A stretch of 64,000 nucleotides of DNA, from NCBI GenBank assembly GCA_038231275.1, contig JBBRLQ010000003.1:172340-236339 (forward strand), written 5' to 3'. Of this stretch, positions 5,723 through 49,645 are shown in pieces (the first letter of the stretch is position 1; every line of letters begins with the position of its first letter). The notes under the pieces were generated by a model. It did not search any database and had not been told where the DNA came from. It was given only the letters and a program-made list of their open reading frames with translations. The DNA is from Polyangiales bacterium (GTDB taxonomy: Bacteria > Myxococcota_A > Polyangia > Polyangiales > Polyangiaceae). Both the position numbers and the translations under genes were made by a program.

Positions 5723-5818
5723 GGAGCACCCCTCTCGGCGACGAGGCTACCGCGAACGGCCGGACGAAGGTTCGTCTTTGCGGGCGTCGTCACGACCTCC
5801 GTGCTACGCCGCCTCCCC

Positions 5819-6280
5819 ATGCGTACCCTCCTTTCGCTCTCTCTCGGGGCCTTGCTTCTCGTCGCGTCCGCGGGCGCGTGCTCATCGTCGTCGTCGTCCC
5901 CGGCGGCGCAGTGCAACACGAACCCGTACTCGTGCGCGGCAGGCACGACGTGCTGGCCCACCGATCAGAAGGCCGACTTCGCGTGCATCGCGAGCGGCGC
6001 TGGCCAAAAGGGAGACTCGTGCCTCAACACGCCGAACGCGGCGACGTGCGGGGACGGCATGCTCTGCTTGCAGCAGACGCAGACCGACGGCCACTGCGTG
6101 CCGTACTGCGACAGCACACACGGGTGCCCGACCGGGCAAGCGTGCACGCCGGCGCAGCTGATCGGGACGAGCCAAATCGCGCACGTCTGCTTCGGCGCCG
6201 GCGGCGGCACCACCGACGCGGGCTCGGGCGGCGACGCCGGGAGCGATACGGGTACGGCGAGCGACGCGGCCTCCGAGTAA
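5819..6280 (+). CDS. small secreted cysteine-rich lipoprotein (153 aa)
   Basis: Signal peptide plus lipobox (MRTLLSLSLGALLLVASAGAC); about 16 Cys in a patterned mature region; Gly/Ser/Asp-rich tail. Same strand as, and 206 bp upstream of, the giant lipoprotein gene. Confidence 0.5.
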   Translation: MRTLLSLSLGALLLVASAGACSSSSSSPAAQCNTNPYSCAAGTTCWPTDQKADFACIASGAGQKGDSCLNTPNAATCGDGMLCLQQTQTDGHCVPYCDSTHGCPTGQACTPAQLIGTSQIAHVCFGAGGGTTDAGSGGDAGSDTGTASDAASE

Positions 6281-6450
6281 AGGCTGGGCCGCGCCCGATT
6301 TCGTCCCTGCGCGCTCGCGTCGCCCGAGCTCGTCGCGATGGGCTCTGGTTCCAACGTCTCATTCGGGCTTCGACTCGAGCTCCTGAGCCACGGCCTATGA
6401 GGAGCCGCGTTACCGTCCGGTGACGGGCGCGCTACGTCACGGGAAACGTT

Positions 6451-6463
6451 CACGGTGACCGTG
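6451..6463. promoter_or_regulatory. 13-bp palindrome CACGGT-G-ACCGTG 24 bp upstream of the 6487 ATG, preceded by GGTGACGG / CGTCACGG repeats
   Basis: Read directly from sequence; candidate operator. Confidence 0.3.
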
Positions 6464-6486
6464 CATCTCCCGCTCCGTGGGCTACG

Positions 6487-13278: not shown

Positions 13279-13291
13279 GGGGAGGCGCGCC

Positions 13292-32222: not shown

Positions 32223-32295
32223 AGCCGATCAGCCTACATCACCTGTCGACGGTTTGGCGGGCGGGCCCTCCTTCATAGACAATGGGGGGCCGCAG

Positions 32296-34845: not shown

Positions 34846-35562
34846 ATGAAGAAGATCACGATGGGCGGGCTCGATGCCGTGCTCGCCGGCGGCACCGATC
34901 GCCAAGGGGGCGGAGACGGCCCGCTGCTCGTGCTCCTCCACGGCTTCGGCGCTCCGGGGGACGATCTCGTCTCGCTCCATCGCGTCATCGACGCGCCGTC
35001 TGGCACCCGCTTCCTCTTCCCGGTCGCGCCCGTAACGCTGCCTCCGCACTACGGCGCCGGTCGCGCCTGGTGGCACATCGACATGGTCGCCCTCGACCGC
35101 GCCGTGCGCGAGGGAAGGTCGCGGGACCTCTCTCGCGACGTCCCCGACGGGCTCGCCGACGCGCGCGCGAAGCTCGTCGCGATGCTCGACGAGGCAAAGG
35201 TGATCCTGTCGCCGTCCGCGATCGTGCTCGGCGGATTTTCCCAAGGCGCGATGCTCTCGTGCGACGTCGCGCTCCACTCCGACATGCCGCTCGCCGGTCT
35301 GGTGCTGCTATCGGGCACGTTGCTCGCGGAAGCGGAGTGGACCTCGCGGATGCCTTCGCGCAAGGGATTGCCGGTGCTCCAGTCGCACGGCCGTCAGGAT
35401 CCGATGCTTCCGTTCGACATGGCGGAGCGCTTGCGTGATCTCTTGAAGGAGGCCGGGCTCGCCGTCACGTTCGTCCCGTTCAACGGCGGTCACAGTATCC
35501 CGCCCGCCGCTCTCGACGGCTTGCGCCCGTTCCTCGCGAGCGCGTTCAGCCGTACTGGTTGA
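34846..35562 (+). CDS. phospholipase/carboxylesterase family alpha/beta hydrolase
   Basis: 238 aa. LLHGFGA, nucleophile elbow GFSQGA, Asp/His downstream (..GGHSIP). Confidence 0.85.
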   Translation: MKKITMGGLDAVLAGGTDRQGGGDGPLLVLLHGFGAPGDDLVSLHRVIDAPSGTRFLFPVAPVTLPPHYGAGRAWWHIDMVALDRAVREGRSRDLSRDVPDGLADARAKLVAMLDEAKVILSPSAIVLGGFSQGAMLSCDVALHSDMPLAGLVLLSGTLLAEAEWTSRMPSRKGLPVLQSHGRQDPMLPFDMAERLRDLLKEAGLAVTFVPFNGGHSIPPAALDGLRPFLASAFSRTG

Positions 35563-36478
35563 CGCGGTTTCTTCCGCCGCGCTTCGCCGCGTAGAGCGCC
35601 TCGTCGGCGGCGGCGACGAGCTGCACCGACGACTCGGCCGCGAACTCCGGCATCCCGGCCACCCCGAGGCTCACCGTCACGCCGACGCGTGTGCCGGCGG
35701 CGTCGAGCGGGGACGCCGCGACGTGCCCGCGGATGCGCTCGGCGAGGACGCACGCCTGATCGCGCGAGACGCCGCGGCAAATCACGGCGAACTCCTCTCC
35801 TCCGTACCGCGCTAACACGTCCTCTGCTCGAAGCGTGCGGGCAACGATCTGCGTGAGCGTGACGAGCACCGCGTCGCCCGCGAGGTGCCCGAGCGTGTCG
35901 TTGACGCGCTTGAAGTGATCGACGTCGAGCATCACGAGCGACAAGTTCGTGCGGTGTCGCCGCGCGTACGCGAGCTCGGTGTCGAGTCGGGTGAGGAAGT
36001 ATTTCTTGTTGAAGATGCCGGTGAGGCCGTCCCGGAGCGCGGCGTCGTACATCTGCTTCTGGAAGTTTTCTTCGAGCTCGTCGTGCAGCGTGAACTTGAC
36101 CAGCGTGTTCGGCCCGAGCTGGATCTTGTCCTCGGCGCGGAGCGCGTGGGTCATGGTGCGCTCGCCGTTGACGAGCATCCCGTTCGCGCTCTTCAAGTCC
36201 TCGATGATCCACTCGCCGCCCGGCGCGCTCCACAGGCGCGCGTGCCGACGAGAGACGCCGTCGTCGTCGAAGCGAATCGTGGAGGAAGGCGAGCGCCCCA
36301 AGATGAGCTCGCCTTCCTCCAAGCGAAACGTCTCGCCGACGTTCGCGCCGATGAGCACGATCAGGTACGGCGTCAGCTTGCGCGCCCGCGCTTTCTCCGC
36401 GCTGCCGATGGACGAGATCCTCGTGATCGAGGTCGCTTCCTCTTGCTCGTCGTCGGGATTCCGCGGTGGCGGGGACAT
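35546..36478 (-). CDS. FHA domain-GGDEF diguanylate cyclase
   Basis: FHA (LGRSPSSTIRFDDDGVSRRHARL). GGDEF domain with RYGGEEF active site and DxLTG/KRVND motifs. Confidence 0.9.
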   Translation of the reverse strand: MSPPPRNPDDEQEEATSITRISSIGSAEKARARKLTPYLIVLIGANVGETFRLEEGELILGRSPSSTIRFDDDGVSRRHARLWSAPGGEWIIEDLKSANGMLVNGERTMTHALRAEDKIQLGPNTLVKFTLHDELEENFQKQMYDAALRDGLTGIFNKKYFLTRLDTELAYARRHRTNLSLVMLDVDHFKRVNDTLGHLAGDAVLVTLTQIVARTLRAEDVLARYGGEEFAVICRGVSRDQACVLAERIRGHVAASPLDAAGTRVGVTVSLGVAGMPEFAAESSVQLVAAADEALYAAKRGGRNRVNQYG

Positions 36479-36549
36479 GCGTGTTACCGTGATCGTCGCA
36501 CCCTGCCCTCCACACGGTCAAGGGCGGGTCCGGCCAGGAGAAATGCGTC

Positions 36550-37329
36550 GTGTGTGAGCTCCTCGGAATGGAGTGCAACGTCCCAACCGACATCGTCTTT
36601 TCGTTCTCGGGGCTCGCCCTTCGCGGCGGCCGTAAAGGGCCACACGGCGACGGCTGGGGTCTGTGCCTCTACGAAGGTCAGGCCGTTCGCGCCTTCCTCG
36701 AGCCGGCCGCCGCCGCCGCCTCGCCGCTCGCGACGTTCCTCCGGCAAAACCCCATCAAGACGCTCCTCGCGGTCGCGCACGTGCGGAAGAAGACGCGCGG
36801 AAAGGTGTCGCTGGCGAACACTCATCCGTTCGTCCGTGAGCTGTGGGGGCGGACGTTCGTCTTTGCCCACAATGGCACCGTGAAGGAGGCGCGCCGGCAC
36901 CCGCTCGGGCGTTTCCGGCCGATCGGCGAGACCGACAGCGAGCACGCGTTCTGCGTGATCATGGACGCGCTCGCGCGCGCGTTCCCGCGGTATCCACGCG
37001 TAAAGCGAGACCTATGGGAGGCGGTCGCAGAGGTCGGAGGTCGACTGGGTAAGGACGGGACCTTCAACTTCCTGCTGGGCGACGGCACGCACCTCTTCGC
37101 GCGCTGCGCGACGAAGCTCCACTACATCGTGCGCAAGGCGCCGTTCAAGCACGCGACCTTGGCGGACGACGATCTGGTCGTGGACTTCTCCGCCGTCACG
37201 ACGCCGCGCGATCGCGTCGCGGTCGTCGCCACGATGCCGCTGACGCGCGACGAGGTGTGGACGCAGGGCAAGCCCGGTCACATGTGGGTCTTCGATCACG
37301 GCGCATTACGTGCGACGCTGCGGTCGTGA
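36550..37329 (+). CDS. class II glutamine amidotransferase domain protein (YafJ-type, N-terminal Cys nucleophile)
   Basis: Begins MCELLG (Cys2 nucleophile); ..HVRKKTRGKVSLANTHPF.. typical of GATase-2 family. Confidence 0.8.
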   Translation: MCELLGMECNVPTDIVFSFSGLALRGGRKGPHGDGWGLCLYEGQAVRAFLEPAAAAASPLATFLRQNPIKTLLAVAHVRKKTRGKVSLANTHPFVRELWGRTFVFAHNGTVKEARRHPLGRFRPIGETDSEHAFCVIMDALARAFPRYPRVKRDLWEAVAEVGGRLGKDGTFNFLLGDGTHLFARCATKLHYIVRKAPFKHATLADDDLVVDFSAVTTPRDRVAVVATMPLTRDEVWTQGKPGHMWVFDHGALRATLRS

Positions 37330-38101
37330 GGCCTGTCCGTATCTTTTTCGCGGCCGCGACGTCTATGATCGGTACACGGTCTTGAACGACGACTCGCCCA
37401 TCCACCGGCTTCTTGCGAACCGCGATCTGTTCGTCGTGTTCCAGCCGATCGTCGACATTCGCACGCACGCGACGTTCGCGTACGAGGCGCTGGTGCGCAC
37501 CAAATCGAAGGACTTCGACGGTCCGCCGGCGATGTTCAACGCGGCGGTGCAGGGCGACTGCGCGGGGCGGCTCGGACGGCTGATTCGCGAGGTGGCGGTC
37601 GAGGGGTGCTCGACGCATCCGCTCTTCTTGAACGTGCACCCGAGCGAGCTGAACGAGCACTACATCGTGCAGCCCGACGATCCGATCTTCCAGCACTCGG
37701 AAGAGGTGTTCCTGGAGATCACCGAGGCAGTGCCGCTCAGCCACTTCCGGCTCTGCCAGAACGTGCTCCACGAGGTGCGCGGGCGCGGGGTCTATCTGGT
37801 CGTCGACGATCTCGGCGCCGGCTACTCCAACCTGAAGTACATCGCCGATCTCCACCCGCGCATCGTGAAGCTCGATCGCGGCCTCATCGCCGGCTTGTCG
37901 CTTCACTCGCGGCTCTTCAAGCTCGTGAAATCGATCGTCGTTCTGTGCCGCGATCTGGGCGCGCAGGTCGTCGCCGAAGGCATCGAGACGCGCCAAGAGC
38001 TCGAGGCCGCGCGCGAAGCCGGGGCGCACTATGCGCAGGGCTACCTGTTGGCGCGGCCTGCGTTTCCGATGCCGCAGGCGGTTTGGCCGGACGGGCTCTA
38101 G
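37310..38101 (+). CDS. EAL domain c-di-GMP phosphodiesterase (stand-alone EAL)
   Basis: FQPIVD, YEALVR, NVHPSEL, VDDLGAGYS, KLD, EGIET motifs. 20-bp overlap with the GATase gene; true start may be a downstream GTG/TTG. Confidence 0.8.
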   Translation: MRRCGREACPYLFRGRDVYDRYTVLNDDSPIHRLLANRDLFVVFQPIVDIRTHATFAYEALVRTKSKDFDGPPAMFNAAVQGDCAGRLGRLIREVAVEGCSTHPLFLNVHPSELNEHYIVQPDDPIFQHSEEVFLEITEAVPLSHFRLCQNVLHEVRGRGVYLVVDDLGAGYSNLKYIADLHPRIVKLDRGLIAGLSLHSRLFKLVKSIVVLCRDLGAQVVAEGIETRQELEAAREAGAHYAQGYLLARPAFPMPQAVWPDGL

Positions 38102-38192
38102 AACGCATTCCATAACCCGCCGCGTCTCGTAAGCGATCTCGCCATGCGACGCGGAACGCCTTGATGCGCACGAGTGAGGCGCGACGTCGAGA

Positions 38193-39356
38193 TCAGAGCG
38201 TCAGAATCCACGCCTTGAGCGCCTCCACCCCCGCGTCGTCGACGAGGTGGGTCACGAGCGGCGGCATCTGGATGAGTTGTGCGTCGTCGCGCGTCGAAGC
38301 GCGGATGACGACGGCGCTGCGACCGGGATCGCCCGCGGCAATTCGAAGCACGGTACCGCCATCGGCAGGCTGCCAGGTGGACCCCCAGTTGACCGCGGTC
38401 TTGTACGTGTCGGTCGCGCTCGGGCTGGCGAGGCCGCCCACGTTCAATCGAAAGTACATGTACGTGAAGTTGGCGACGGATTGCGGTGAAGCGTTGTGGC
38501 ACGCCGTGCCGCAGTTGGCGTGGAGCCACACGAGCGCCGCCTTCGTCACGACGTCCCCCGGCACGGTCAGAGGAGCGGTAGGGGCCTTCGTCACCAAATC
38601 GCGAAGGACCAGCTCGTCCATCGTCAGCCCCGTCGCGTCCGGCCCGGCGAGGCTCATCGCCTCGAAGCCGAGGACGTTGTCGATCCGGCCCGAATGGCAG
38701 ACGTTGCACGCGCTCGCCGGCGGGATCTCGTAGGTGCCGCCGTCGACGTGCCGTTGTCCGTTGACGAGCTCGGTGGCGTGCGTCTCGCCGTCCAACCATT
38801 GAAACGTCCGCATCGACCACGTGCCATCGTCCCTTTTTTGCAGCATCCGGGTTTCGATGCGCTGCCCACCGACGACGAACTCTTTCCAAAGAGTCGTCCC
38901 CTTTGGAAAGACCCACTCGTCCATGTCGGACGTGTCGATCTTCGTCGCGGGCGGTAGGCGGATCCACCGCGATTTGACCGCCCCATCGCTCCAGAAGGCG
39001 TACGAGGGTTTGTACGCGACGACGTCGGGGGCGATCGTCTTCGCGAGAATGTCACGGTAAAGACCCGTGCACTCGAGCTCCGTGCTCACCCCGCCATCGG
39101 GACAGGCGCGGGCGGCGTCGTCGGCGTCGGCGTGCGACTCGTCCCCAACGTCTTCGGCGTCGACGCCCGCTTCGGTCGCGCCAACGTCCGAAGCCGCGTC
39201 CTGCCCAGCGTCCGTCGATGCACCGCCGCTCGTCCCCGTGCATTGAACGAGGGCGGCGACCGCGAGAAGACCCGCGATCGCCGCCTCGATCGAACGAATG
39301 TGCGTCCGTGACGCCACGCGACGATCGCCGTTCAGTTCGCCGTGATGACCCCGCAC
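38193..39356 (-). CDS. secreted lipoprotein with CxxCH heme-binding motif (possible Planctomycete-type cytochrome-c-like domain)
   Basis: Lipobox-like LLAVAALVQCTG. Canonical CNVCH plus a CGTACH variant. C-terminal ..LIQMPPLVTHL... Start may be downstream of 39356. Chosen over the overlapping frame 38098..38967. Confidence 0.5.
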   Translation of the reverse strand: MRGHHGELNGDRRVASRTHIRSIEAAIAGLLAVAALVQCTGTSGGASTDAGQDAASDVGATEAGVDAEDVGDESHADADDAARACPDGGVSTELECTGLYRDILAKTIAPDVVAYKPSYAFWSDGAVKSRWIRLPPATKIDTSDMDEWVFPKGTTLWKEFVVGGQRIETRMLQKRDDGTWSMRTFQWLDGETHATELVNGQRHVDGGTYEIPPASACNVCHSGRIDNVLGFEAMSLAGPDATGLTMDELVLRDLVTKAPTAPLTVPGDVVTKAALVWLHANCGTACHNASPQSVANFTYMYFRLNVGGLASPSATDTYKTAVNWGSTWQPADGGTVLRIAAGDPGRSAVVIRASTRDDAQLIQMPPLVTHLVDDAGVEALKAWILTL

Positions 39357-40045
39357 CCGCTGATGGGCGGGGGGAGTGGCGTGCCCGCTTCGCTCAGCTC
39401 CGGACCGCCGTCAGGAAGCAGCACGGGAGCGCCGTGAATGGCGAGGACGCGCCCGACGACCCCGGGGCCGCCATCGGCGGCAACGTCCAGTGTGAGCGCG
39501 GGCGTTCCGGTTTTGGTCGACACGTTGTGCCCGACCCCCGCGTCGTCGACCGGCGTGTTGGCGAACTCCGCGTTGCGGTTCGTCGTGTCGAGATTGAAGT
39601 GCGCGCCCGGCGCGCCGACTGCGCAGGACGTGCCGACGTGGATGTGCGTCCCGCGTGCGCCCGGCACGGCGTTCGTCACGTCGATCGTGAGCGCGAGGCC
39701 GCCATTGACCTCCACCAACTTCGCGGTTCCGGTGGCCGTCCCGTTGGCGCCGTACGGCGCGATCGTGATGCTCGCCTTGCGCCCCGCGTCGCCGCTGGAG
39801 CCAGAGCTCCCGCTGGAGCCAGAGCTCCCGCTGCTGCCGCTCGACCCGGAGCTCCCGCTGGAGCCAGAGCTGCCGCTGGAGCCAGAGCTGCCGCTGGAGC
39901 CAGAGCTGCCGCTCGATCCGGAGCTACCGCTCGATCCGGAGCTGCCGCTCGACGATGCCGGCGACGACGAATCCGAGCACGCGTAGATACCCCCCGTCGC
40001 AAAGATGAAAGCCCCAACGAGACCGATGGTCCGAGTTCGCTTCAT
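39332..40045 (-). CDS. Cu/Zn superoxide dismutase-like (SodC family) lipoprotein with (SSG)n linker
   Basis: Good RBS (GGAGGAAACCAATG). Signal plus lipobox (FIFATGGIYACSD). (SSG)x~17. SodC-like motifs THIHVGTSC, GAHFN, ISGCGVI; some Zn-ligand positions not obvious. Confidence 0.65.
   Translation of the reverse strand: MKRTRTIGLVGAFIFATGGIYACSDSSSPASSSGSSGSSGSSGSSGSSGSSGSSGSSGSSGSSGSSGSSGSSGSSGSSGSSGSSGDAGRKASITIAPYGANGTATGTAKLVEVNGGLALTIDVTNAVPGARGTHIHVGTSCAVGAPGAHFNLDTTNRNAEFANTPVDDAGVGHNVSTKTGTPALTLDVAADGGPGVVGRVLAIHGAPVLLPDGGPELSEAGTPLPPPISGCGVITAN
39790..39950. repeat. about 21/18-bp tandem DNA repeat (GCTGGAGCCAGAGCTSCCGCT-like) encoding (SSG)n on the minus strand
   Basis: At least 7 near-identical units read directly. 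Confidence 0.8.
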
Positions 40046-40217
40046 TGGTTTCCTCCCAAGGTGAGTCCAGAAAGGGTACGCGACGCGATCTCGACGGCAA
40101 GGACTTGCGAAGGAAAAGAGCCGGTGGGGAAACGGCGATCCGGGGCAGCAACGATCTAGGTCGCCCGCAAAAGCGCGGGGTTGGCGCGTTGGCAACGCCT
40201 CGCACGACGGCACCGGC

Positions 40218-41351
40218 TCAAGGATTGGGGCCGAAGGCGATCGACGCAATTCCGTTCGGATCGACGAGGCCGTCGAACACCATCGTCCACTCGCGGCTGT
40301 TGGTCGAACGGTAAACTTTGCTGTTCCACACGAGCGAGAGATACACGCCGTGGCCGTACGTCAAATCGCCGTGCGGAGCCGTCGGCGCGACCTGATCGGT
40401 CCACGTCTGTCCGTCGGGGGAGGTCAAGACGTGCCCCAACCCGACGGCCGTGAAGTGCCCCTGCGCATGGACGAGGCTTGCCGCCTGCGCTCCGAGTGCA
40501 TGATTGGAGGTCCATGTTGCGCCGCCGTCGGTCGAACGCACGCTCTCGGTGCCCGACGGCAGCAGGCCGACGAAGACGCCGTTGCCATAGACGAATTGGG
40601 TTCCCCACGTAGTGCCCGCGGGCACGATCGGAGCTCCCGTCGAGGGGAGCCACGTCTTGCCGTCGTTCGCGTGGAAGATCTCGCCGGCGTCGTTCACGAC
40701 CACGTAGGCGTCGATGCCGTTGACCTTGCCGTACGCGAGAGCATTGCGCGAGTGGTGTGCCGTCGTGTAATCGGCGCGCGGCGGGTGCTGTGTCCAGCTC
40801 GCGAGATCATTCGTCGTGGTCGCGAGCCACCCGTACCCGCCCGAGGAGACGTACTGTCCTTGCGCATACACCATCGACGCGAGCCACTGGCCGTCGTGCT
40901 TCCACTCCGTCCACGTCTTGCCGTCGGGTGATGACGCGATCTTCGCGGCGAACGCGATGAACTGATTGTTCAGCCACACGGTCGTTCGAATGCCGGTTGC
41001 GTCGCCCGCCGCCGCGTCAGGCGCGATGTCGGTCGCGTCGTCGACCCACGTGAGGCCATCGTCGAGCGAACGGACATGCCGGAGAGAGTTGCCGACTGCC
41101 GCAAAGATGCCGGCGCGGTCCCGCGGATCGCCCGGCGCGCTCGCGTCACCTCCGTCGCCCGGCGCGATTGCGTCACCTCCGTCGCTCGGCGACGCGTCCA
41201 CGAGGACCGACGCCTCGACGGCGCCGTCTGCGTTGCCGCTGCCTCCCGCGTCATCGATGGGTGCCGACGGAGACGAAGGGGTGGCCGGGTCGCCGCACGC
41301 GCAGAAGACGGCGAACAGACCCGCGCACGTGAGAGAGGCAAGAGCCTTCAT
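40218..41351 (-). CDS. BNR/Asp-box repeat beta-propeller lipoprotein (sialidase-fold-like)
   Basis: Signal plus lipobox (LTCAGLFAVFCACGD). Repeated S-x-D-G-x-TW motifs (SPDGKTW, NDGKTW, STDGGATW, SPDGQTW). Start at internal Met 41351. Confidence 0.6.
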   Translation of the reverse strand: MKALASLTCAGLFAVFCACGDPATPSSPSAPIDDAGGSGNADGAVEASVLVDASPSDGGDAIAPGDGGDASAPGDPRDRAGIFAAVGNSLRHVRSLDDGLTWVDDATDIAPDAAAGDATGIRTTVWLNNQFIAFAAKIASSPDGKTWTEWKHDGQWLASMVYAQGQYVSSGGYGWLATTTNDLASWTQHPPRADYTTAHHSRNALAYGKVNGIDAYVVVNDAGEIFHANDGKTWLPSTGAPIVPAGTTWGTQFVYGNGVFVGLLPSGTESVRSTDGGATWTSNHALGAQAASLVHAQGHFTAVGLGHVLTSPDGQTWTDQVAPTAPHGDLTYGHGVYLSLVWNSKVYRSTNSREWTMVFDGLVDPNGIASIAFGPNP

Positions 41352-41439
41352 CGCGCTCAGCAAAGCACACGGATCTCGAAAACCAAGCGTCGGACCCGCA
41401 GAAAAATAAATTGAGCCGATTGCCTGCGCACGAGGCCTC

Positions 41440-43209
41440 TTGTTTTGCGTAAGGCTCATGATTGCGAAGTTTCCCAAGAGCGCACTGCTCGCCTTTGCGA
41501 CGGTGCTTGCCGCGTGCACGGGGGTCATCGGCGACGGGGTCGACCCGGGCCCGACCGTGGATGGCCCGTCCGCGCCGACGCCGCCGCCGGCGCCCGCGGT
41601 TGGGTCCACGCGCGTCCTTCGCCGGCTCTCGAAGGCCGAGTACACGAGCTCGATCCGTGCCCTCATCACTCTCGTCGCTCCGTCCGAAGCGGAGGCGCTG
41701 CAGAAAGCGCTCGCACCGACCCTGGACCGCTTCCCCGACGACCTGCTCGTCGCCGCGACACACGAGCGGCGCGGCGGCTACCACCGACTCGATCAGAACG
41801 TCCAGCAGACGCATGCGGACATCGCCTATGCGGTAGCGAACGAAATCGGCAAACAGCTCACGAGCTCGCCCGCGCGCCTCCAGGTCGTGATCGGTGACTG
41901 CATCACGGGACCGGATCCCGAGGGATGCGTGGCGGCCTTCCTCCGCCGGTTCGGGGAGCACGTGCTCCGCCGGCCCTTGACCGACGCGGACGTCACGTTC
42001 TACGAGACGCCGCTCTCGGGCGGGCCCGCTTCTCCCGAGGCGCTCGCCGACGTCATCGCGCTCCTCTTCGCGGCGCCGGACGTGCTGTACCTGATCGAGC
42101 GAGAGGGCGGAGATGGGACCGTGCGGAAGCTTTCGCCGTACGAGCTCGCGAACCGGCTCGCGTTTCACTTCTCCGAGACGCTCCCGGACGAGGAGCTCTT
42201 CGCGCTGGCGCGGAGCGGTGAGCTCGCGAAGGAGGATGTCTACGCGAAGCAGGTCGATCGGCTCGCACAGGGCCCACGTGCTCGCGCGATCATGGACGAG
42301 TTTTTCCACGAGTGGCTTCGCCTCGACGAGCTCGAGCGCCTCGACTCTCGCCTCGGGGATCGCGTGTTCGACGCGTTCGTCGGCACCGATACCCCGACGG
42401 CGGAGCTTCGCGGCAACATGTTCGCGGACGTCCTCGATGCTGCTGCATGGGTGACCGCGCACGGCGGCACGCTCCGCGATCTCCTCCAGAATCGGCAGTC
42501 GTTCGCGCGAACGCCGGACGTGGCGAAGCTCTACGGCGTTCCGGTATGGGACGGCGTGAGTGAGCCGCCGACGTTCATCGAGCCGAGTCGCGCAGGCCTC
42601 ATCACGCGAGCGGCATTTCTCGCGACCGCCTCGGGCAATACGCGGCCCGTCATCAAAGGTGTTCGGATTCGGATGGGCCTTCTCTGCGACAATCTCCCTC
42701 CGCCTCCTCCGAACGCTGCGGGCGCGCATATCGATCTAAGTCCCACGCAAACGACCCGGCAGGTCGTCGAGCAGCTGACGGAGTCGCAAGGGAGCTCGTG
42801 TCCGACGTGCCACGCCACGTTGATCAACCCGCTCGGCTTTGCGACGGAGAACTTCGATGCTTTGGGACGGTTTCGCTCCGTCCAGCGTCTGTTCGATCGG
42901 TTCGGTAACGAGGTCGCGGAGCGTGATGTCATGACGGCGGCCGTGTCGCGGGTCACGCCTTCGGATGTACGGGTGGCGCAGGATGCGTCCGATCTCGTGC
43001 GCTATCTCGTCGAGAGCAAAAAGGTCGCGCCTTGCTTTGCGAGGAACCTCTTCCGCTTCGCGATGGCGCGGAACGAGAGCGACACCGACGATGCCGCGCT
43101 CCTCAAGGCGCTGGGTGACGACGCCGAGCAAAAGCCGCTCGCCGATGTCTTCAAATCGATCGCGCTTCGTCCGGAGTTCAAGTCTCGAGTGGTGAAGGAG
43201 GGAATGTGA
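41440..43209 (+). CDS. DUF1592/DUF1588/DUF1587/DUF1585/DUF1595-family (Planctomycete PSD-type) secreted protein
   Basis: Lipoprotein signal (LLAFATVLAACTG); about 590 aa. Typical partner of DUF1552, with 4-bp overlap to the next gene. Family assignment by architecture and pairing, not alignment. Confidence 0.6.
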   Translation: MFCVRLMIAKFPKSALLAFATVLAACTGVIGDGVDPGPTVDGPSAPTPPPAPAVGSTRVLRRLSKAEYTSSIRALITLVAPSEAEALQKALAPTLDRFPDDLLVAATHERRGGYHRLDQNVQQTHADIAYAVANEIGKQLTSSPARLQVVIGDCITGPDPEGCVAAFLRRFGEHVLRRPLTDADVTFYETPLSGGPASPEALADVIALLFAAPDVLYLIEREGGDGTVRKLSPYELANRLAFHFSETLPDEELFALARSGELAKEDVYAKQVDRLAQGPRARAIMDEFFHEWLRLDELERLDSRLGDRVFDAFVGTDTPTAELRGNMFADVLDAAAWVTAHGGTLRDLLQNRQSFARTPDVAKLYGVPVWDGVSEPPTFIEPSRAGLITRAAFLATASGNTRPVIKGVRIRMGLLCDNLPPPPPNAAGAHIDLSPTQTTRQVVEQLTESQGSSCPTCHATLINPLGFATENFDALGRFRSVQRLFDRFGNEVAERDVMTAAVSRVTPSDVRVAQDASDLVRYLVESKKVAPCFARNLFRFAMARNESDTDDAALLKALGDDAEQKPLADVFKSIALRPEFKSRVVKEGM

Positions 43210-44735
43210 AGCTCTCACGCCGTCAGGTCCTGAGGGGTGCATTCGGCGCGACGTTGGCGCTGCCCTTTCTCCCGTCTCTCTTCGGGAACGAGAAAGAGGC
43301 GCGGGCGGCTTACAGCACGCGCAAGTTCTTCGTGAGCATGCAGACCGAGCATGGCGGGGCATGGGGGAAGAACATGTTCCCCGCCGACACGACGCTCACG
43401 AGCAAGCTGACCTACGCTGGCCACGAGATCCGCAGCGGTACGCTCGTTGGCGCGAAGGGGGACGGCAAGAACACGCTCTGTCCGATCCTCGGCGCGAACG
43501 CCACCACATTGACCGATACGCTGATTGGCAAATTGAACGTCATCCGCGGGCTCGACTGCCAGATGAACGTCGGCCACAACAGCGGGGTCGCGCTCGGGAA
43601 CTACGGTCGCAATGACAAGGATGCCGACCACGGCATGCTTCCAGACGAGCCGTATATCCCGACGATCGATCAGCTCATGGCGTGGTCGCCGAACTTTTAC
43701 TCCGATCTGTCGTCGATTCGTGAACGCTCGCTCGTCGCGGCGCCTGGCGCATCCTGGAACTACTCCAATCCGCAGGCGCGCTCCGGCCCCGTCCAGGCGA
43801 CGGGGTCCACGTTCGACAGCGAGGAGCTCTTCAAACGCATCTTCGTCTCCAACGAGCCGACGGGCCGGAAGCCGATCGCAGACTTGGTCCTCGCGGACTA
43901 CAAGCGCATGCGGGGCTCGTCGGGCCTATCGAAGGAGGATCAACGCAGGCTCGACGATCACGTCCAGCGCGTGACGGAGCTCCAGCGCCGACTCAGCGTC
44001 CGCGCAAGCTGTGGCGCCGTCAAAACGCCCACCGGCAAATCGCTCGACTACATGAACCAGCCTACCTACTTGGTAGATGCCAATCTCCAGAGCACCGCGT
44101 GGGAGCTCTTGAATGACGTCCTCGTCGCGGCGTTCATGTGCGGCACGTCACGGATCGCCGTCCTGCGTCCGGGCGACGAGAACAACGTGTTCTTCTCGAG
44201 CTACGCGGGGTCCTGGCATCAGGACGTGGCTCACCAGGCGCACCTCCCCGACGGGATCAAGCAAGGAATGCTCGCGAGCGCGCTCCAGAAATTTTTCGAG
44301 AGCGTGTTCGTGGACCTGGCGGCGAAGCTCGATGCCGTCGACGACGGTTCGGGAGGTCGCACCCTCCTCGACAACTCCCTCATGATGTGGTCGCAGGAAG
44401 CCGGCGCGTACACGCACGAGCCCGTGTCGCTGCCGGTCGTGACCGCAGGCAGCGCGGGAGGCTTCCTCAACACGGGGCTCTACTGCGACTACCGCAACCT
44501 CTTTCGCCAGATCAATTCCGGCGGGTTCCAGGGTTCCACGGAGGTCACGCACGCGGGTCTCCTCCAGGGCCAGTGGCTCGGTACGGTGTGTCAAGCGATG
44601 GGGCTCGAGCGAAGCGAGTACGAGACGACCCCGCACGGTGGCTACGGCCTCGAGAACCTCGAGGCTGTGAGAGCCAGCGCCTACCCGGACTCGGTCTTCG
44701 CGGCCCGCAACGACCTTCTTCCGTTCCTCAAATGA
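43206..44735 (+). CDS. DUF1552 family protein with twin-arginine (Tat) signal
   Basis: N-terminal MKLSRRQVLRGAFGATLALPFLP (SRRxVLRG Tat motif). 509 aa. Overlaps neighbours on both sides by 4 bp. Confidence 0.75.
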   Translation: MKLSRRQVLRGAFGATLALPFLPSLFGNEKEARAAYSTRKFFVSMQTEHGGAWGKNMFPADTTLTSKLTYAGHEIRSGTLVGAKGDGKNTLCPILGANATTLTDTLIGKLNVIRGLDCQMNVGHNSGVALGNYGRNDKDADHGMLPDEPYIPTIDQLMAWSPNFYSDLSSIRERSLVAAPGASWNYSNPQARSGPVQATGSTFDSEELFKRIFVSNEPTGRKPIADLVLADYKRMRGSSGLSKEDQRRLDDHVQRVTELQRRLSVRASCGAVKTPTGKSLDYMNQPTYLVDANLQSTAWELLNDVLVAAFMCGTSRIAVLRPGDENNVFFSSYAGSWHQDVAHQAHLPDGIKQGMLASALQKFFESVFVDLAAKLDAVDDGSGGRTLLDNSLMMWSQEAGAYTHEPVSLPVVTAGSAGGFLNTGLYCDYRNLFRQINSGGFQGSTEVTHAGLLQGQWLGTVCQAMGLERSEYETTPHGGYGLENLEAVRASAYPDSVFAARNDLLPFLK

Positions 44736-45871
44736 AGGCGCTGCTCCCAGCTTCCGTCCTGTTGCTCGTGCTCGTGCCCCTGGCGTGCTCCCCGGCGAGC
44801 CCGGGAGACCCCGCCACGAACGCGACGCCCCCGCCCGCACCGTCGGCAACGGCGCAGGATGCGTCGCCTCCTCCCGACGCCGCCATCGACGACGGCGGCA
44901 TCATCGGCGACGGAGGTGCGCTGCGACTCACCTGTCCCAAGAAAGCCCCGTTCGACACGACCATCCCCGGTCTGCTCGAGCAGTGCACCAAGCGTGTTCT
45001 CATCGCTGCTCTCGATGGTGCGAAGCTTTCGCTGTCGAGCAACGACGGTGCAACGTGGACCGACCCCGTTTCGCTCGACCCCGCGATGGTCGACCCGCAC
45101 GTGTTCAACTTCGCGACCGGCAACGGGCTCGTCGTCGCGATGACACGCGGCGGACTTTACACGAGCACGGACGCCAAGACGTGGACGCTGGCCCCGTCGA
45201 CGGCGCCTGCAGCGTACAACTACTCGGGGTTCGTCCTCTTCGCCGACGGCCGGTTTGCTTCGAGTGGCAACGGCGGCTCGTTCGGCTCCGACGATGGAAT
45301 CAGTTGGATGGGGTACGGAGCGAGAGAGAAGTATCCCTCGGGCGCCACCGCAGGGGTCGAGACCTTCGGAATGGGGTTCTTCGCCGGGCAATGGATCCTC
45401 GCGGGTCGCGAGCGCGACACCAACGTCGCCCTCTACCGCACGTCGAGCGACGGACTCGGCTGGAGCGTGGACAAGAACGTCGGGACGGCTCCACGACAGG
45501 GAGCCTATGGCTCGGTCAACGTGGTGCAGGACCAGGTCTTCGTCGTCGGCGCCGGCATCGTTGCACGAACTACGGATGGCTCGCTGTGGTCCGAGAGCGC
45601 CAACACCACGGTCAATTTCGCCGTCTCGGACGGCAAGCGGAGCGTTGGGTTCGCGGCGAGCCAAACCTTCACCTCCACAGACGGGATCACCTGGACGAAG
45701 CTCGGTGACGCACCGACCCTCTACAACGCCATCTTCGTCGAAGGCACGTGGTTCGGGTTGGATGAGAGATCCTGGTACACGTCGCCCGACGCCGTGAAGT
45801 GGACTGCGGTTCTCACGCCGCCAACGAGCAACTATGTTGCCACCCTCGGTTACGCGCGCATCCTGAAGTAA
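44732..45871 (+). CDS. BNR/Asp-box repeat beta-propeller lipoprotein, paralog of 40218..41351
   Basis: Signal plus lipobox (LLLVLVPLACSPAS). Motifs SNDGATW, STDAKTW, SDDGISW, SSDGLGW, TTDGSLW, STDGITW. Confidence 0.65.
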   Translation: MKALLPASVLLLVLVPLACSPASPGDPATNATPPPAPSATAQDASPPPDAAIDDGGIIGDGGALRLTCPKKAPFDTTIPGLLEQCTKRVLIAALDGAKLSLSSNDGATWTDPVSLDPAMVDPHVFNFATGNGLVVAMTRGGLYTSTDAKTWTLAPSTAPAAYNYSGFVLFADGRFASSGNGGSFGSDDGISWMGYGAREKYPSGATAGVETFGMGFFAGQWILAGRERDTNVALYRTSSDGLGWSVDKNVGTAPRQGAYGSVNVVQDQVFVVGAGIVARTTDGSLWSESANTTVNFAVSDGKRSVGFAASQTFTSTDGITWTKLGDAPTLYNAIFVEGTWFGLDERSWYTSPDAVKWTAVLTPPTSNYVATLGYARILK

Positions 45872-45912
45872 GAGGCTCGTCTCCCCTGAAGAAAATCCCC
45901 TGAAGAAAACCA

Positions 45913-45944
45913 AAAGGCGGTCTCCTTTCGGAGACCGCCTTTTG
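45913..45944. terminator. rho-independent bidirectional terminator (AAAAGGCGGTCTCC-tttc-GGAGACCGCCTTTT)
   Basis: 14-bp perfect stem, 4-nt loop, flanked by an A-run and a T-run, 42 bp after the TAA of the BNR gene. Also a 13-bp direct repeat CCCCTGAAGAAAA x2 at 45883..45909. Confidence 0.75.
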
Positions 45945-45952
45945 CGTTTCGG

Positions 45953-46036
45953 GCGCAGGCGAAGGAGTCGAACCTTCTCGAGTCATCGAACACCCTGGAG
46001 GGCGGCTCCCCCGAGCCCTTTCCGTCGATGCCTGCG
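45953..46036 (-). ncRNA. tRNA-like element: canonical T-arm (GAAGG-TTCGACT-CCTTC) plus perfect 7-bp acceptor helix (CGCAGGC/GCCTGCG); 5' half is non-canonical. Possible tRNA pseudogene or att-site remnant
   Basis: Folded by hand on the minus strand. T-loop fits TΨCRANN, and a discriminator plus CC follows. D and anticodon arms could not be fitted (A at position 8, no 7-nt anticodon loop found). Confidence 0.3.
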
Positions 46037-46156
46037 TGCTTCACCCATAAGCATCGCGCGTGCCGCGGGCAAATTACGCGCAAGTGCGCGAGGTGACGTA
46101 GCGGCGCCGACGGCCCAGCGCCAGGGTTTTGTCGTCGTGCGTCGACGCGCCGTGGA

Positions 46157-46708
46157 TCAGTTGGTGTCTTTGGCCTGGAACTCGGTGTCGACGGTGATGT
46201 CGGGCTTCACCGCCACGCCGAGGTACGACGGGGTCTTGATGCCGTAGTCGTTGATGTTGAGGGCGACGTTGCCCTTCACGGAGAACGTGTCGCCGTCCAG
46301 CTTCGCGGAGTAGTGGACGGTGACGTCCTTGGTCACGCCGTGGATCGTCATCGTCCCCTTCGCGTCGCCCGACGACTCCTTGCCGGCCGCGGGGAACTTC
46401 AGGCTCGCCCGAGGGACCTTCAGCGTCGCGGTGGGGTACGTGTCGGCTTCGAGGTAGTTCCGCGTGTGCTTGTCGCGGAGCCCGATGCCGGTCGAGATCG
46501 CCCCGAGCTTCACGACGACGGAGACGGTCGTGCCGTCGTCGGTCACGTCGACCTCGCTCGTGGTGCCGTTGATCGCGAGGCCGGCGGGGCCGGAGGCGTG
46601 GAACGCCCCCTTCGCGTTGCCCGTCTTGGCGAGCTTCGCGTCGGCGACGCCGGGGATTGCGAGCGCGAGCGCCAGGGTTGCGAACGCGAGAATGCTTCGT
46701 GCCTTCAT
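46157..46708 (-). CDS. YceI-like periplasmic protein
   Basis: Signal peptide (ILAFATLALALAIPGVADA); YceI-like beta-barrel sequence pattern; start at internal Met 46708. Confidence 0.75.
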   Translation of the reverse strand: MKARSILAFATLALALAIPGVADAKLAKTGNAKGAFHASGPAGLAINGTTSEVDVTDDGTTVSVVVKLGAISTGIGLRDKHTRNYLEADTYPTATLKVPRASLKFPAAGKESSGDAKGTMTIHGVTKDVTVHYSAKLDGDTFSVKGNVALNINDYGIKTPSYLGVAVKPDITVDTEFQAKDTN

Positions 46709-47205
46709 TTGTGCTCCTTCAGCCACTGATTGAGAAACTCTGCGCTCTTGTCCCATCCCGAACGGAGGCTCTTCTCGAACGCCGACTCGAGGATGCCGCC
46801 GATGGCGAAGACCTTCGCCTCGAATTGAAAGTCCGAGACGCGACGAACCTTGCCTTCGCCGGCCGGCTCCGCCTTGATCGTTCCCTTCGTCGTCACCTTG
46901 TCGGCGAGGGAGCTCGGCGTCGTCTTCCACGTGACGACCTTGGTGGCCTTGTCGAACGTCGCGTCCTCCACGTACGAGAACGACGAGCCGAGCGCCTTGG
47001 CGACCGGCCCCGGGGCGTCCATCTTCGGCGTCACCTTCACGCGGCGGACGATCTCCTTGTCGCCGTCCTTGAAGTCCAAGACCTCGTAGTGCGGGAACTG
47101 GAGGCCGTCGCGGAAGAGCGCTTCGTTGAAGGTCTTGTCGAAGAAGATCTTCCAGAAGGTCGCCTCGTCGCAGTGAATCTCGTGTGAAAGGGAGAAGCTT
47201 TTCAT
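46705..47205 (-). CDS. hypothetical protein (SRPBCC/DUF2505-like?), 166 aa, translationally coupled to the YceI-like gene
   Basis: ATGA overlap with the downstream gene. Only the last 166 codons of the long ORF 46705..48474 are taken as real (the rest is Arg-rich antisense of the phosphoesterase gene). Confidence 0.5.
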   Translation of the reverse strand: MKSFSLSHEIHCDEATFWKIFFDKTFNEALFRDGLQFPHYEVLDFKDGDKEIVRRVKVTPKMDAPGPVAKALGSSFSYVEDATFDKATKVVTWKTTPSSLADKVTTKGTIKAEPAGEGKVRRVSDFQFEAKVFAIGGILESAFEKSLRSGWDKSAEFLNQWLKEHK

Positions 47206-47271
47206 GTGAAACGAGCCTAGCGCGGGGAAGCGCGCGGCAAAAGCCGACGTTTTCACCTGCGAGGTGACCCG

Positions 47272-48438
47272 ATGTTCCCCCCGCTCGCCGCCGACACGAC
47301 CTTGCACATCTTCTTGGTACTGCTGACCGTCGGAATTGTTTCGCTGCGCCTGCTGATTCCTGCGTGGTGGCGTATTGCGCCCGTGCGGTGGGGGGCGGCG
47401 GCCGCGGCGTGTGCGATCGGCGTCGGCTTCGCGATGTGGGTCGGAGGACCGAAGATCGGCGCGTACGGCGTCTCGTACTGGGGCGTCGTGCTGGCGTGGG
47501 GTCTCATGACGCTCCTCGCGCCGGCGGTCCTCACGCTGCCCGTCGTCGCCGTTGCGTGGAAGGCAGCGAGCCGCGATCGGCAGCTCCCGCGGCGCAAGGT
47601 GCTTCAGGCCGGCGTCGCGATGGTGCCGGCGGCGGCGATCGGGGCCAGCGGCGACGGGCTCGTCTCCGCGCGGGCGCCGACCAAGGTGGTTCCCATCCCG
47701 ATGCGCTTTCCCGATCTGCCCAACGACCTCGAGGGGCTGCGCATTCTTCAGCTGAGCGATCTGCACCTCGGCGCGTGCCTTCAGCTCGCCGATTTCGAGC
47801 GCTTCCTGGAGCGCGCCGCTGCCGCGAAGCCGGATCTCGTCCTGTTCACGGGCGACGTCGCCGACGACGTGCGCCAAATCACGCCCGCGCTCGAGCTCGC
47901 GTACGGTCTGCGGCCGCGCTTCGGCGTCTTCGCGTCGCTGGGTAACCACGAGTACCTGCACGACATCCGCGTGACGCGACCGCTCTACGAAAAATCGAGG
48001 GTGCCGTTGCTCGTCGACGAAGGGCAGGCGATCCGCGTCGGGACGTCCACGCTCTGGCTCGCGGGCGCCGACGAGCCGTCGGGCCATCCCGGGACGTTCG
48101 AGGCGCCGGGCGCGCGCTTCGACGACGGCGTGCGTGCGTGCCTGGAGCGATCGCCGAAGGACGCCTTCAAGGTGCTCATGTGCCACCGCCCCGAAGGATT
48201 TCCCGTCGCGGCTCGCGAAGGGTTCGACCTCACGCTCTCGGGGCACACGCACGGCGGACAGGTCGGGCTCTTCGGCCGGAGCGTGCTCGCGTCGTCCGAA
48301 CGGCACCCCTATTGGTGGGGTACCTACGCCCGCGGCGCGGGACGTCTCTATACGACGAGCGGTTTCGGGCACTGGTTTCCGTTTCGGCTGGGCTGCCCTG
48401 CGGAAGCCCCGTTGATCGTCCTCGGACGAGGCCAATGA
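47272..48438 (+). CDS. membrane-anchored metallophosphoesterase (calcineurin-like)
   Basis: N-terminal TM helices. Motifs LSDLHLG, GDVAD, GNHE, GHTHGGQ. Confidence 0.85.
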   Translation: MFPPLAADTTLHIFLVLLTVGIVSLRLLIPAWWRIAPVRWGAAAAACAIGVGFAMWVGGPKIGAYGVSYWGVVLAWGLMTLLAPAVLTLPVVAVAWKAASRDRQLPRRKVLQAGVAMVPAAAIGASGDGLVSARAPTKVVPIPMRFPDLPNDLEGLRILQLSDLHLGACLQLADFERFLERAAAAKPDLVLFTGDVADDVRQITPALELAYGLRPRFGVFASLGNHEYLHDIRVTRPLYEKSRVPLLVDEGQAIRVGTSTLWLAGADEPSGHPGTFEAPGARFDDGVRACLERSPKDAFKVLMCHRPEGFPVAAREGFDLTLSGHTHGGQVGLFGRSVLASSERHPYWWGTYARGAGRLYTTSGFGHWFPFRLGCPAEAPLIVLGRGQ

Positions 48439-48484: not shown

Positions 48485-49645
48485 TCAGGCGGCAAGTCGG
48501 TCGGGCAGCTTGAACTCGGCGGTGGCTCCGGCGAGGCCCACCTCGACCACGCGGTCCCAGTAGCGCGTGCCCGTCGTCAACGCCGTGCGATCGACGCCGG
48601 GTACCCGATCGCGCAGTGTCTCTGCCGCGCCGATGACGCGCTTGAGGAGGGGGACGGTCAATCGCCAGCGCGTGCGCTCGACGCCGAGCTGATCGGCCAG
48701 CTCGTCGCCGAGCAGCTCGCGGCAGACCGCCTTCGAGAACTCGACGCGCCTCTCGAGCATGGCGCGCTCACGCGGCGATCGCGCGAGGGAGAGCGGCGTC
48801 TCGATCAGCGTGCGCGTGAGCTCGCGTCCGTCGGCGTCGGCGGGCGCGGTCGTGGCGCGGATCAGATCGGCGAGCCTTCGACCCTCGGCCTCGCCGGCCG
48901 GAAGAATCTCCGGATCGACACCCATGAGGAGCCCCGTCGTGCGCCACAGCTGCGTGTACGCCTCCGCGTCCTCCGCCGAGACGCGCACGCCGAGCGTGCG
49001 GAGGCCCTCGAGGAGCACCATCGAGAAGAGGAGCGTTGTCGCCGCCATGTCGTGCTGGTTGATGGGCTGGCCCCACGCGCCCGTGTCCCACTTGCCGCTC
49101 GCGAGGAGCATTTGGCGGACCTGCGCGTGCATGAGGCGAACGCGAAGCGTGATCTGGTAGCCGTCGGCGCCGGGGCGCATGCCGCCCGGACGGCAGACGG
49201 CCTGCACGAAGCGCGCGGTCTCGTTGAGCCTTCGCGGCGCTTGCTCGCGCATTCGTCCGGAGAAGACGAGCGGCTTGTTCCCGCCCGGCGACGCGTACCC
49301 GTGCGGCAGCGACGAGAGCCCGAGGACGAGGCCGCCCAGGAGCCCAGCGCGCATCAGCACGCGACCGCCGCGATCGAGCGTGGGATAGTCGACCCACGGC
49401 GGCACGCGCTCGGTCTCCGCGAAAAGCGCGCGCATCTCCTCCGGCGCGCCTGAGACGTTCGCGATGCCCCGCGCCGCCGCATCGGTGAACGTGGCCCAGC
49501 CGCGCCCCGGCGGCATCGCGGCGATGCACTTCACCACCGCGTCGGCCGGCTCGTCCACGCGGAGGAGCCACGGCCCGAGGCGGTCCACGCGGTCGCCGAA
49601 GCGAATTCGCGCCTGATTCAGCTGGACAAAGCGTGTAGGATACAT
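48485..49645 (-). CDS. MpaB/DUF2236-family oxygenase-like protein
   Basis: 386 aa. Pattern ..GLLGGLVLGLSSLPHGY.. and conserved Arg/His-rich mid-region typical of DUF2236; by-eye assignment only. Confidence 0.5.
   Translation of the reverse strand: MYPTRFVQLNQARIRFGDRVDRLGPWLLRVDEPADAVVKCIAAMPPGRGWATFTDAAARGIANVSGAPEEMRALFAETERVPPWVDYPTLDRGGRVLMRAGLLGGLVLGLSSLPHGYASPGGNKPLVFSGRMREQAPRRLNETARFVQAVCRPGGMRPGADGYQITLRVRLMHAQVRQMLLASGKWDTGAWGQPINQHDMAATTLLFSMVLLEGLRTLGVRVSAEDAEAYTQLWRTTGLLMGVDPEILPAGEAEGRRLADLIRATTAPADADGRELTRTLIETPLSLARSPRERAMLERRVEFSKAVCRELLGDELADQLGVERTRWRLTVPLLKRVIGAAETLRDRVPGVDRTALTTGTRYWDRVVEVGLAGATAEFKLPDRLAA

Follow-up and report, generated by a model that had tools for sequence, protein, structure and literature searches.

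Six adjacent genes for predicted exported proteins in a Polyangiales genome: a DUF1592/DUF1552 pair with beta-propeller lipoproteins and a separate SOD-like/cytochrome gene pair

Whether genes that lie side by side also work together is the question raised by six adjacent genes on contig JBBRLQ010000003.1 of a Polyangiales bacterium (assembly GCA_038231275.1). They occupy positions 38193-45871 of the 64,000-nucleotide stretch analyzed here (positions 172,340 to 236,339 of the contig), which is called the window in the following. Encoded are a DUF1592-family lipoprotein, a DUF1552 protein, two Asp-box beta-propeller lipoproteins (BNR1 and BNR2), a lipoprotein resembling Cu/Zn superoxide dismutases (SODs) and a putative cytochrome c. 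A first-pass annotation of this DNA had treated the six genes as one neighbourhood and had proposed an extracytoplasmic redox or oxidative-stress function for the DUF1592/DUF1552 pair, with the SOD-like protein and the cytochrome as its partners. The observations described below lead to a different answer, namely that the region is composed of two independent, unrelated extracytoplasmic units: Module A (40218-45871), which contains the pair and the propellers, and Module B (38193-40045), which contains the SOD-like protein and the cytochrome. The anatomy of the six genes and their split into two modules is very probably correct. For the complete explanation, comprising the anatomy and working of Module A and a separate Module B, we would give a probability of about one half.

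Layout of the region and independence of the two modules

All six open reading frames (ORFs) are present, with coding-strand GC contents at third codon positions (GC3) of 0.81-0.85, as expected in a window of ~69% GC (Table 1). The gene models of the DUF1592-family protein (583 amino acids, aa), the DUF1552 protein (509 aa), BNR2 (379 aa) and BNR1 (377 aa) are the same as the NCBI gene calls, starts included. The annotated start of the cytochrome lies at 39317 and gives a protein of 374 aa that is 100% identical to the NCBI product, with the frame open for another 13 codons up to 39356; with the start at 39317, the gene therefore does not overlap the SOD-like gene. Module A consists of a three-gene operon on the plus strand, in which DUF1592 is followed by DUF1552 and BNR2, and of the divergently oriented BNR1 gene on the minus strand. 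Translational coupling by 4-bp overlaps, as described in the first-pass annotation, could be read in the sequence: the DUF1592/DUF1552 junction is formed by GTGA at 43206-43209 with AAGGAGG upstream, and the DUF1552/BNR2 junction by ATGA at 44732-44735. The extracytoplasmic location assigned to the products is likewise plausible, as four lipoboxes and an SRRxVLRG leader can be recognized by eye. The hairpin that follows the operon is likely a bidirectional terminator shared with a convergent YceI gene.

Table 1. Positions of the six genes and associated features in the window, and of related SOD-like/cytochrome pairs in other loci.
Feature	Position	Strand	Basis
Predicted diheme cytochrome c lipoprotein, Module B gene 2	38193..39317	-	TIGR03806 match, 374-aa NCBI product
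Predicted copper-only SOD-like lipoprotein, Module B gene 1	39332..40045	-	Sod_Cu match, SOD1 alignment
BNR1, divergent Asp-box beta-propeller lipoprotein, Module A	40218..41351	-	NCBI product P0244; iterated HMM
Divergent intergenic region BNR1/operon, 106 bp	41352..41457	.	presumed promoter site
DUF1592-family lipoprotein (PSD5-PSD4-PSCyt3-PSD2), operon gene 1	41458..43209	+	Pfam
DUF1552 (HXXSHH) protein with predicted twin-arginine leader, operon gene 2	43206..44735	+	Pfam, predicted structure
BNR2, 7-blade Asp-box beta-propeller lipoprotein, operon gene 3	44732..45871	+	DUF6242; NCBI product P0243
Palindromic hairpin, 15-bp stem and T runs	45911..45944	.	terminator scan
SOD-like/cytochrome pair	L085 4243-6102; L086 7306-9083; L087 7417-9080; window 38193-40045		

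The independence of the modules becomes apparent from the neighbourhoods of their relatives. The sample of loci related to Module A comprised 84 loci; a one-genome-per-species scan gave 80, at 42-52% identity. Hidden Markov models (HMMs) of the SOD-like protein and the cytochrome had no match within +/-10 kb of the pair in any of these 84 loci, and only the copy in the window was recovered among 85 sequences with the pair. In the reverse direction, HMMs of DUF1552 and DUF1592 found nothing in 86 cytochrome-carrying loci. In each of the three closest relatives of the cytochrome on long contigs (59%, 60%, and 54% identity; L085, L086, and L087), a Sod_Cu gene of the same strand directly precedes the cytochrome gene. 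The two genes are 15 bp or 2 bp apart or overlap by 4 bp, and neither DUF1592 nor DUF1552 nor a propeller was found near these pairs. Another 80, more distant metagenome cytochrome loci had heterogeneous neighbourhoods in which no SOD-like, propeller, DUF1592 or DUF1552 gene was present. The SOD-like protein and the cytochrome can consequently no longer be counted as partners of the pair, and this lead to its function is removed as misleading. The oxidative-stress case therefore rests on a juxtaposition of the two modules that is unique to the window in this sample and lends no support to a shared function. A redox role of the DUF1592/DUF1552 pair must rest on the invariant CxxCH motif of the DUF1592 protein. 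The proposed redox function thus finds support in part only, as the region comprises two independent modules; the heme and SOD neighbours are coincidental, and the predicted fold of DUF1552 is hydrolase/transferase-like.

The DUF1592/DUF1552 pair and its propeller lipoproteins

The assignment of the first operon gene to the DUF1592 family is borne out by Pfam, as PSD4 (87 bits, cut-off 23.3), PSCyt3 (79 bits, cut-off 27), and PSD2 (29.8 bits, cut-off 25.8) exceed their cut-offs, with PSD5 slightly under its own (31.5 bits, cut-off 34.2). PSCyt3 and PSD4 on a single protein make it a group III PSCyt protein. C448, C451, and H452 of its CxxCH motif (residues 448-452, nt 42799-42813) are invariant in 90 homologues, and the lipobox Cys is nearly so. 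The predicted model (predicted local distance difference test, pLDDT, 90) is predominantly helical, and a structure search with it found no solved structural relative and no cytochrome-like fold. The second gene belongs to DUF1552, as had been claimed, with 76.1 bits for Pfam PF07586 (HXXSHH/DUF1552; E = 4.7e-21, cut-off 30), and 88 of 88 aligned homologues match this family as well. In public data the DUF1552 profile matches 6,743 cluster representatives.

PSCyt and PSD domains were first defined in Rhodopirellula baltica (PMC5615132), and their pairing with DUF1501 or DUF1552 was described by 2012-2017, with up to dozens of such pairs per Planctomycetes or Verrucomicrobia genome (PMC3542564, PMC5615132). 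PSCyt3 genes usually adjoin DUF1552 genes, and PSCyt proteins often carry carbohydrate-binding modules (CBMs) or protein-interaction domains (He et al., 2017, PMC5615132). Module A is a Myxococcota version of this group III PSCyt3/PSD4-DUF1552 pair. As in the pairs from Verrucomicrobia and Planctomycetes, PSD5, PSD4, PSCyt3, and PSD2 are united on one protein and DUF1552 is encoded immediately downstream. It differs from them in its host phylum, in the absence of a fused CBM or interaction domain, in the separate propeller genes found in 38-43% of loci, and in the putative equivalent of the HxxSHH motif, which reads HQDVAH; the clade of the window additionally lacks two His of the GHHxGGH motif. 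Wherever upstream sequence was available, which was the case in 81 related loci, the DUF1592 gene immediately precedes DUF1552, and the 80 loci of the genome scan all come from Myxococcota or from unclassified metagenome-assembled genomes. The earlier label of a planctomycete-type neighbourhood therefore does not apply to the host, which is myxobacterial.

A similar arrangement is known from the Planctomycetes-Verrucomicrobia-Chlamydiae (PVC) superphylum, where DUF1501 and PSCyt1/PSCyt2/PSD1 likewise combine a twin-arginine protein of unknown function with a CxxCH-containing multi-domain protein and have been duplicated many times (PMC3542564). These proteins belong to Pfam families different from those of Module A. 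Single-sequence comparisons with hhalign, a weak test, gave no profile similarity between DUF1552 and a DUF1501-like protein of a further locus (L088, see below), and no signal between the DUF1592 protein and a PSD2 protein of the same locus.

Second DUF1592/DUF1552 pairs or second DUF1592-like genes lie back to back with the first in L038 (4531-11512), L073 (3852-5432), and L076 (907-2409), which indicates that the modules duplicate and cluster locally. Among cultured bacteria, loci of the Module A type occur in Polyangium, Sorangium, Archangium, Myxococcus, and Pyxidicoccus, and for Myxococcus genetic tools are well established. The module in cultured Myxococcota thus offers a handle on a long-standing unknown, the function of which it does not itself reveal.

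The AlphaFold model of DUF1552 (pLDDT 87.5) shows the core alpha/beta fold of the alkaline-phosphatase superfamily. Its fold matches are hydrolases and transferases of this superfamily, YejM/PbgA being among them, and none of the 60 matches listed is a redox enzyme. The predicted fold thus points to ester hydrolysis or transfer and not to redox chemistry, and it suggests phospho-, sulfo-, and phosphono-esters as substrates to screen. Compared with S1 sulfatases, NPP phosphodiesterases, PafA/PhoK, and EptA/MCR-1, the identity is only ~10%, a Ser, Thr or formylglycine nucleophile could not be recognized, His-rich motifs take the place of Asp-rich ones, and a large helical insertion (residues 225-376) is present. 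Seven residues (H49, D117, H124, H338, H343, E398, and H404) are invariant across the 88 homologues, and from their placement after core strands they appear to resemble the metal motifs of the superfamily. A predicted twin-arginine leader, SRRQVLRG, spans residues 4-11, with R5 and R6 nearly invariant in the same set.

The putative equivalent of the HxxSHH stretch, identified by eye, is H338-Q-D-V-A-H343, in which the outer His residues are invariant and other residues occupy the positions of the Ser and the middle His. The conserved motif GHH[TR]GGH reads GHN[ST]xxA in the clade of the window (H125N and H129A; residues 124-129, nt 43575-43592). This loss is common to the DUF1552 protein of the window and its seven closest homologues, whereas at each of these two positions, the second and third His of the motif, a His is found in 72-79 of the 88 relatives. 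Four contigs of this clade were looked at, and all four carry a translationally coupled downstream propeller. The stretch C312-x-T-S-R316 was considered as a sulfatase-like CxPxR formylglycine motif and rejected as unsupported, since it is located where a long helix of the insertion ends, whereas in sulfatases the formylglycine motif follows the first core strand.

BNR2 contains seven Asp-box-like motifs (S-x-D-x-G-x-T-W) spaced 35-52 aa apart, with 0.23 expected by chance, and BNR1 contains four strict Asp-box motifs plus three relaxed ones recognized by eye. BNR2 passes the DUF6242 cut-off (PF19755; 30.9 bits, cut-off 29), whereas BNR1 fails it at 13.4 bits, and related propellers give only sub-threshold matches to the Pfam families BNR, BNR_2, and DUF6242 (PF02012, PF13088, and PF19755). 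An iterated propeller HMM unites BNR1 and BNR2 (E = 1e-72 and 1e-76; BNR1 2.8e-76), and a direct BLASTP comparison of the two yielded ~31% identity over 138 aa (E = 1e-4). The picture of paralogous propellers flanking the pair is accordingly right with respect to their common family and their position on both flanks, the two being distant paralogues.

Recurrence of propellers beside the pair had been named beforehand as a test, and it was observed. When the six-frame ORFs of the 84 related loci were searched with the iterated HMM, a propeller was directly adjacent in 36 loci (20 upstream, 21 downstream, with 5 on both sides). These 41 adjacent matches compare with 5 in the remaining ~694 kb of flanking sequence, which by our arithmetic would predict ~2.4 adjacent ones, an excess of ~17-fold. 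Dereplication of DUF1552 at 70% identity left 42 clusters. In 16 of these a propeller adjoins the pair, and four arrangements occur (downstream co-directional, upstream divergent, upstream co-directional, and downstream convergent). In an all-against-all clustering of neighbouring genes, the propeller was by far the top recurrent partner family. The closest DUF1552 homologues, found in metagenomes (75% and 69% identity), are encoded in an operon of the same three genes, the last of which is the coupled propeller, and this coupled third gene is also present in the closest relatives L001-L004. Upstream of the closest operon relatives lie a thiolase gene and a gene for a small unknown protein, and no propeller, SOD-like or cytochrome gene was found there. 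A propeller in the upstream-divergent position of BNR1 recurs in 13 related loci and none was found beside the SOD-like/cytochrome pairs of L085-L087, which is why BNR1 is assigned to the operon of Module A. Since it recurs as a third component, the propeller lends itself to pull-downs and genetics.

The searchable literature yielded nothing on propellers that recur, in some cases translationally coupled, as a third component in Myxococcota, on an alkaline-phosphatase-superfamily fold of DUF1552, or on the missing solved relative of the PSCyt3/PSD protein. What the propeller partner and the fold assignment add to the pair, which is already described there without a function, is modest.

With respect to regulation, no sigma-70-like site was found in 38000-46300 and no sigma-54 -24/-12 site in the intergenic region between BNR1 and the operon, with the window-wide count of the latter equal to chance. 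The promoters of BNR1 and the operon are presumably located in this intergenic region. Recurrent neighbours of the pair are FecR/TPR anti-sigma factors (13 loci), Ser/Thr kinases (12), sigma-54 activators (10), and extracytoplasmic function (ECF) sigma factors (9); beside the operon in the window, no regulator was found. One clade shows the order ECF sigma factor, FecR/TPR anti-sigma factor, propeller, DUF1592, and DUF1552, sometimes with a second propeller (L033, L034, L044, L059, L063, L079, and L082 at ~5500-8100; L007 at 12837-14033; L080 at 3321-4454). Such an order points to an envelope signal as inducer. In the closest relatives L001-L004, a convergent gene for an FHA/sigma-54 activator is found, and the window has neither regulator type.

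A possible working of Module A and its alternatives

As to how Module A may work, the DUF1592 protein would be a lipid-anchored protein exported via the Sec pathway that most likely carries one c-type heme at its invariant CxxCH. The DUF1552 protein would be loaded with metal in the cytoplasm and exported in folded form by the twin-arginine translocation (Tat) system, and would most likely act as a metal-dependent enzyme on a substrate of the phospho- or sulfo-ester type. The heme lipoprotein may hold it at the membrane and may tune or sense its activity or supply an electron. One or two propeller lipoproteins would serve as substrate-binding or docking subunits that present a polymeric substrate, and would thereby fill the role of the carbohydrate-binding or protein-interaction domains fused to PSCyt proteins of other phyla. 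This role is proposed because such fusions are frequent elsewhere (PMC5615132) and because a CBM2-bearing DUF1592 protein was detected in the proteome of a lignocellulose-degrading community (PMC6004670). Module B is a separate two-gene operon that adjoins Module A in the genome of the window only. The working of Module A builds on what was observed (gene order, coupling, family membership, motif conservation, predicted folds, and the recurrence of the propeller), from which complex formation, heme and metal binding, and the chemistry are deduced.

This working is put forward tentatively, with the odds somewhat against it, and a number of observations weigh on that side. Over half of the related loci do not have an adjacent propeller, and an interaction of the three proteins of Module A is deduced from their genes. 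Heme binding by the DUF1592 protein is predicted from a CxxCH motif that sits in a fold without cytochrome-like relative. The relationship of DUF1552 to alkaline phosphatases exists at the level of the fold and has no counterpart in sequence: no alkaline-phosphatase-clan Pfam family matched any of the 88 members, and the only match in a sequence search against solved structures in the PDB was a TorA signal peptide (E = 0.71). Tat export is read from the twin-arginine motif, which matches Pfam TAT_signal at E = 0.095. Lastly, the loss of two of the three His of GHH[TR]GGH in the clade of the window could mean that catalysis is altered or lost. A more far-reaching version, in which the heme lipoprotein, DUF1552, and the propeller form a membrane complex that couples an alkaline-phosphatase-fold metal centre to a c-type heme in a fold without solved relative and, as a new enzyme class, cleaves or modifies an esterified extracellular polymer with the aid of redox chemistry, is a long shot. 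If true, it would at last give the large PSCyt/DUF1501/DUF1552 gene families a chemistry.

Alternatively, the pair might constitute an electron-transfer module in which the PSCyt3 heme shuttles electrons to or from a cofactor-bearing redox enzyme, DUF1552, acting on a sugar or protein. An electron-transfer idea of this kind was published for the DUF1501/PSCyt system (Kamneva et al., 2012, PMC3542564). The invariant CxxCH fits it, and so does the twin-arginine leader, which implies folding or cofactor loading in the cytoplasm. However, DUF1552 has the fold of a hydrolase or transferase, and no iron-sulfur, flavin or molybdopterin family was matched by any of its 88 members, so that this alternative appears unlikely.

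Rather more doubtful is a non-catalytic role in sensing or as a scaffold, in which DUF1552 would be a pseudo-enzyme like the alkaline-phosphatase-fold protein YejM/PbgA that binds a ligand and reports, together with the heme lipoprotein and the propeller, to envelope signaling. The presence of YejM/PbgA among the fold matches, the two motif His lost in the clade of the window, and the ECF sigma factors, FecR/TPR proteins, and sigma-54 activators beside the pair in other loci would all be in line with it. On the other hand, the seven invariant His, Asp, and Glu residues suggest that a metal site has been kept, an inducible enzyme system would be just as likely to have regulators next to it, and the operon in the window has no regulator at its side.

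The view that the six genes together make up a single extracytoplasmic redox or oxidative-stress system, with the SOD-like protein and the cytochrome as partners, is largely refuted by the neighbourhood data and must be considered very improbable. It could draw on the adjacency of the six genes, the products of which are all predicted to be exported or lipid-anchored, and on the locus L088 (273-6296). There, a cytochrome homologue (45% identity) is divergent from a 342-aa protein with a weak, PQQ_2/BamB-like propeller and accompanied by a 681-aa PSD2-containing protein and a DUF1501 protein, a window-like layout built from sister families that stands as a single unexplained case. Against it are the empty reciprocal HMM searches in the 84 Module A loci and 86 cytochrome loci, the SOD-like/cytochrome pair standing alone in L085-L087, and the other genes that occupy the upstream position in the closest operon relatives. 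That propellers, such lipoproteins being abundant in large myxobacterial genomes, lie beside the pair by accident is hardly credible: most of the related loci lack one and BNR1 and BNR2 are only distantly related, but the 41 adjacent matches far exceed the ~2.4 expected from the flank density, the adjacency survives dereplication in four gene arrangements, and the 4-bp translational overlap occurs in the window and in relatives.

Module B and neighbouring genes

Judged from its sequence, the cytochrome is a distant relative of the SO2930/TIGR03806 family and a predicted diheme cytochrome c of lipoprotein type. Its alignment extends over nearly the full profile (positions 7-313 of 314, E = 1.4e-31), and like that family it carries two motifs of heme type, the second of them putative. 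It differs from the family by a score of one third of the cut-off (109.9 versus 313.3 bits), a CX3CH second motif, a lipoprotein N-terminus, and its SOD-like partner. Conservation of its CxxCH motif, for which a check had been asked, was found: C204, C207, and H208 are invariant in 44 homologues, as are H266-x2-C269-x3-C273-H274, which reads HANCGTACH and includes the predicted second heme motif CGTACH, and M351-P-P, and the lipobox Cys26 is nearly invariant.

The SOD-like protein reaches 26.1 bits for Sod_Cu (PF00080; E = 1.3e-5), which is under the cut-off of 28.9, while three orthologues pass it at 30.1-39.8 bits, and it matches Cu/Zn SODs in the PDB at E = 5e-4. In an alignment with human SOD1, the copper-binding His residues (H46, H48, H63, and H120) and C146 are invariant, whereas the zinc loop is 9 aa shorter and lacks H71, H80, and D83, and R143 aligns to Pro. 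The earlier description as Cu/Zn-SOD-like is thus supported for the copper site and not for the zinc site. The alignment assigns the domain to the copper-only SOD design, the hallmarks of which are known from Mycobacterium tuberculosis SodC (Spagnolo et al., 2004) and fungal SOD5, according to the passages of PMC13017621 that cite this work. With the copper-only SODs the protein shares beta-barrel homology, the four copper His, the disulfide Cys, the absence of a zinc site, and a predicted lipid anchor; it differs from them by its score under the Pfam cut-off, the replaced Arg143, and its operon with a putative diheme cytochrome c. That a copper protein is paired with a cytochrome hints at a role different from plain superoxide dismutation. 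No literature report of a SOD-like/diheme cytochrome operon was found, no literature search having been aimed at such an operon.

The SOD-like protein also contains a linker of ~18 (Ser-Ser-Gly) repeats, encoded at 39791-39949. Because the underlying DNA repeat is imperfect, with 78% matches, the linker is maintained as protein and does not represent a recent slippage expansion. On the opposite strand, the repeat creates a spurious ORF with high GC3 at 39438-39986.

Immediately to the left of the cytochrome (35546-38101), the window contains genes for an FHA-GGDEF diguanylate cyclase on the minus strand, a class-II glutamine amidotransferase, and an EAL phosphodiesterase. Two ORFs of 588 aa (minus strand) and 893 aa (plus strand) with good coding GC3 at 30456-34824 have no Pfam match at E <= 0.001. 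To the right of Module A, a protein with an MpaB/Lcp-type oxygenase domain is encoded at 48485-49645. Genes for a DUF2505 protein and a metallophosphoesterase flank the SOD-like/cytochrome pair in L087 (4232-4738 and 9110-10255), and in the window they are found at 46705-48438, beyond Module A as seen from Module B. Placement of Module A and the YceI gene (46157-46708) between Module B and the DUF2505/metallophosphoesterase genes by rearrangement would fit this layout.

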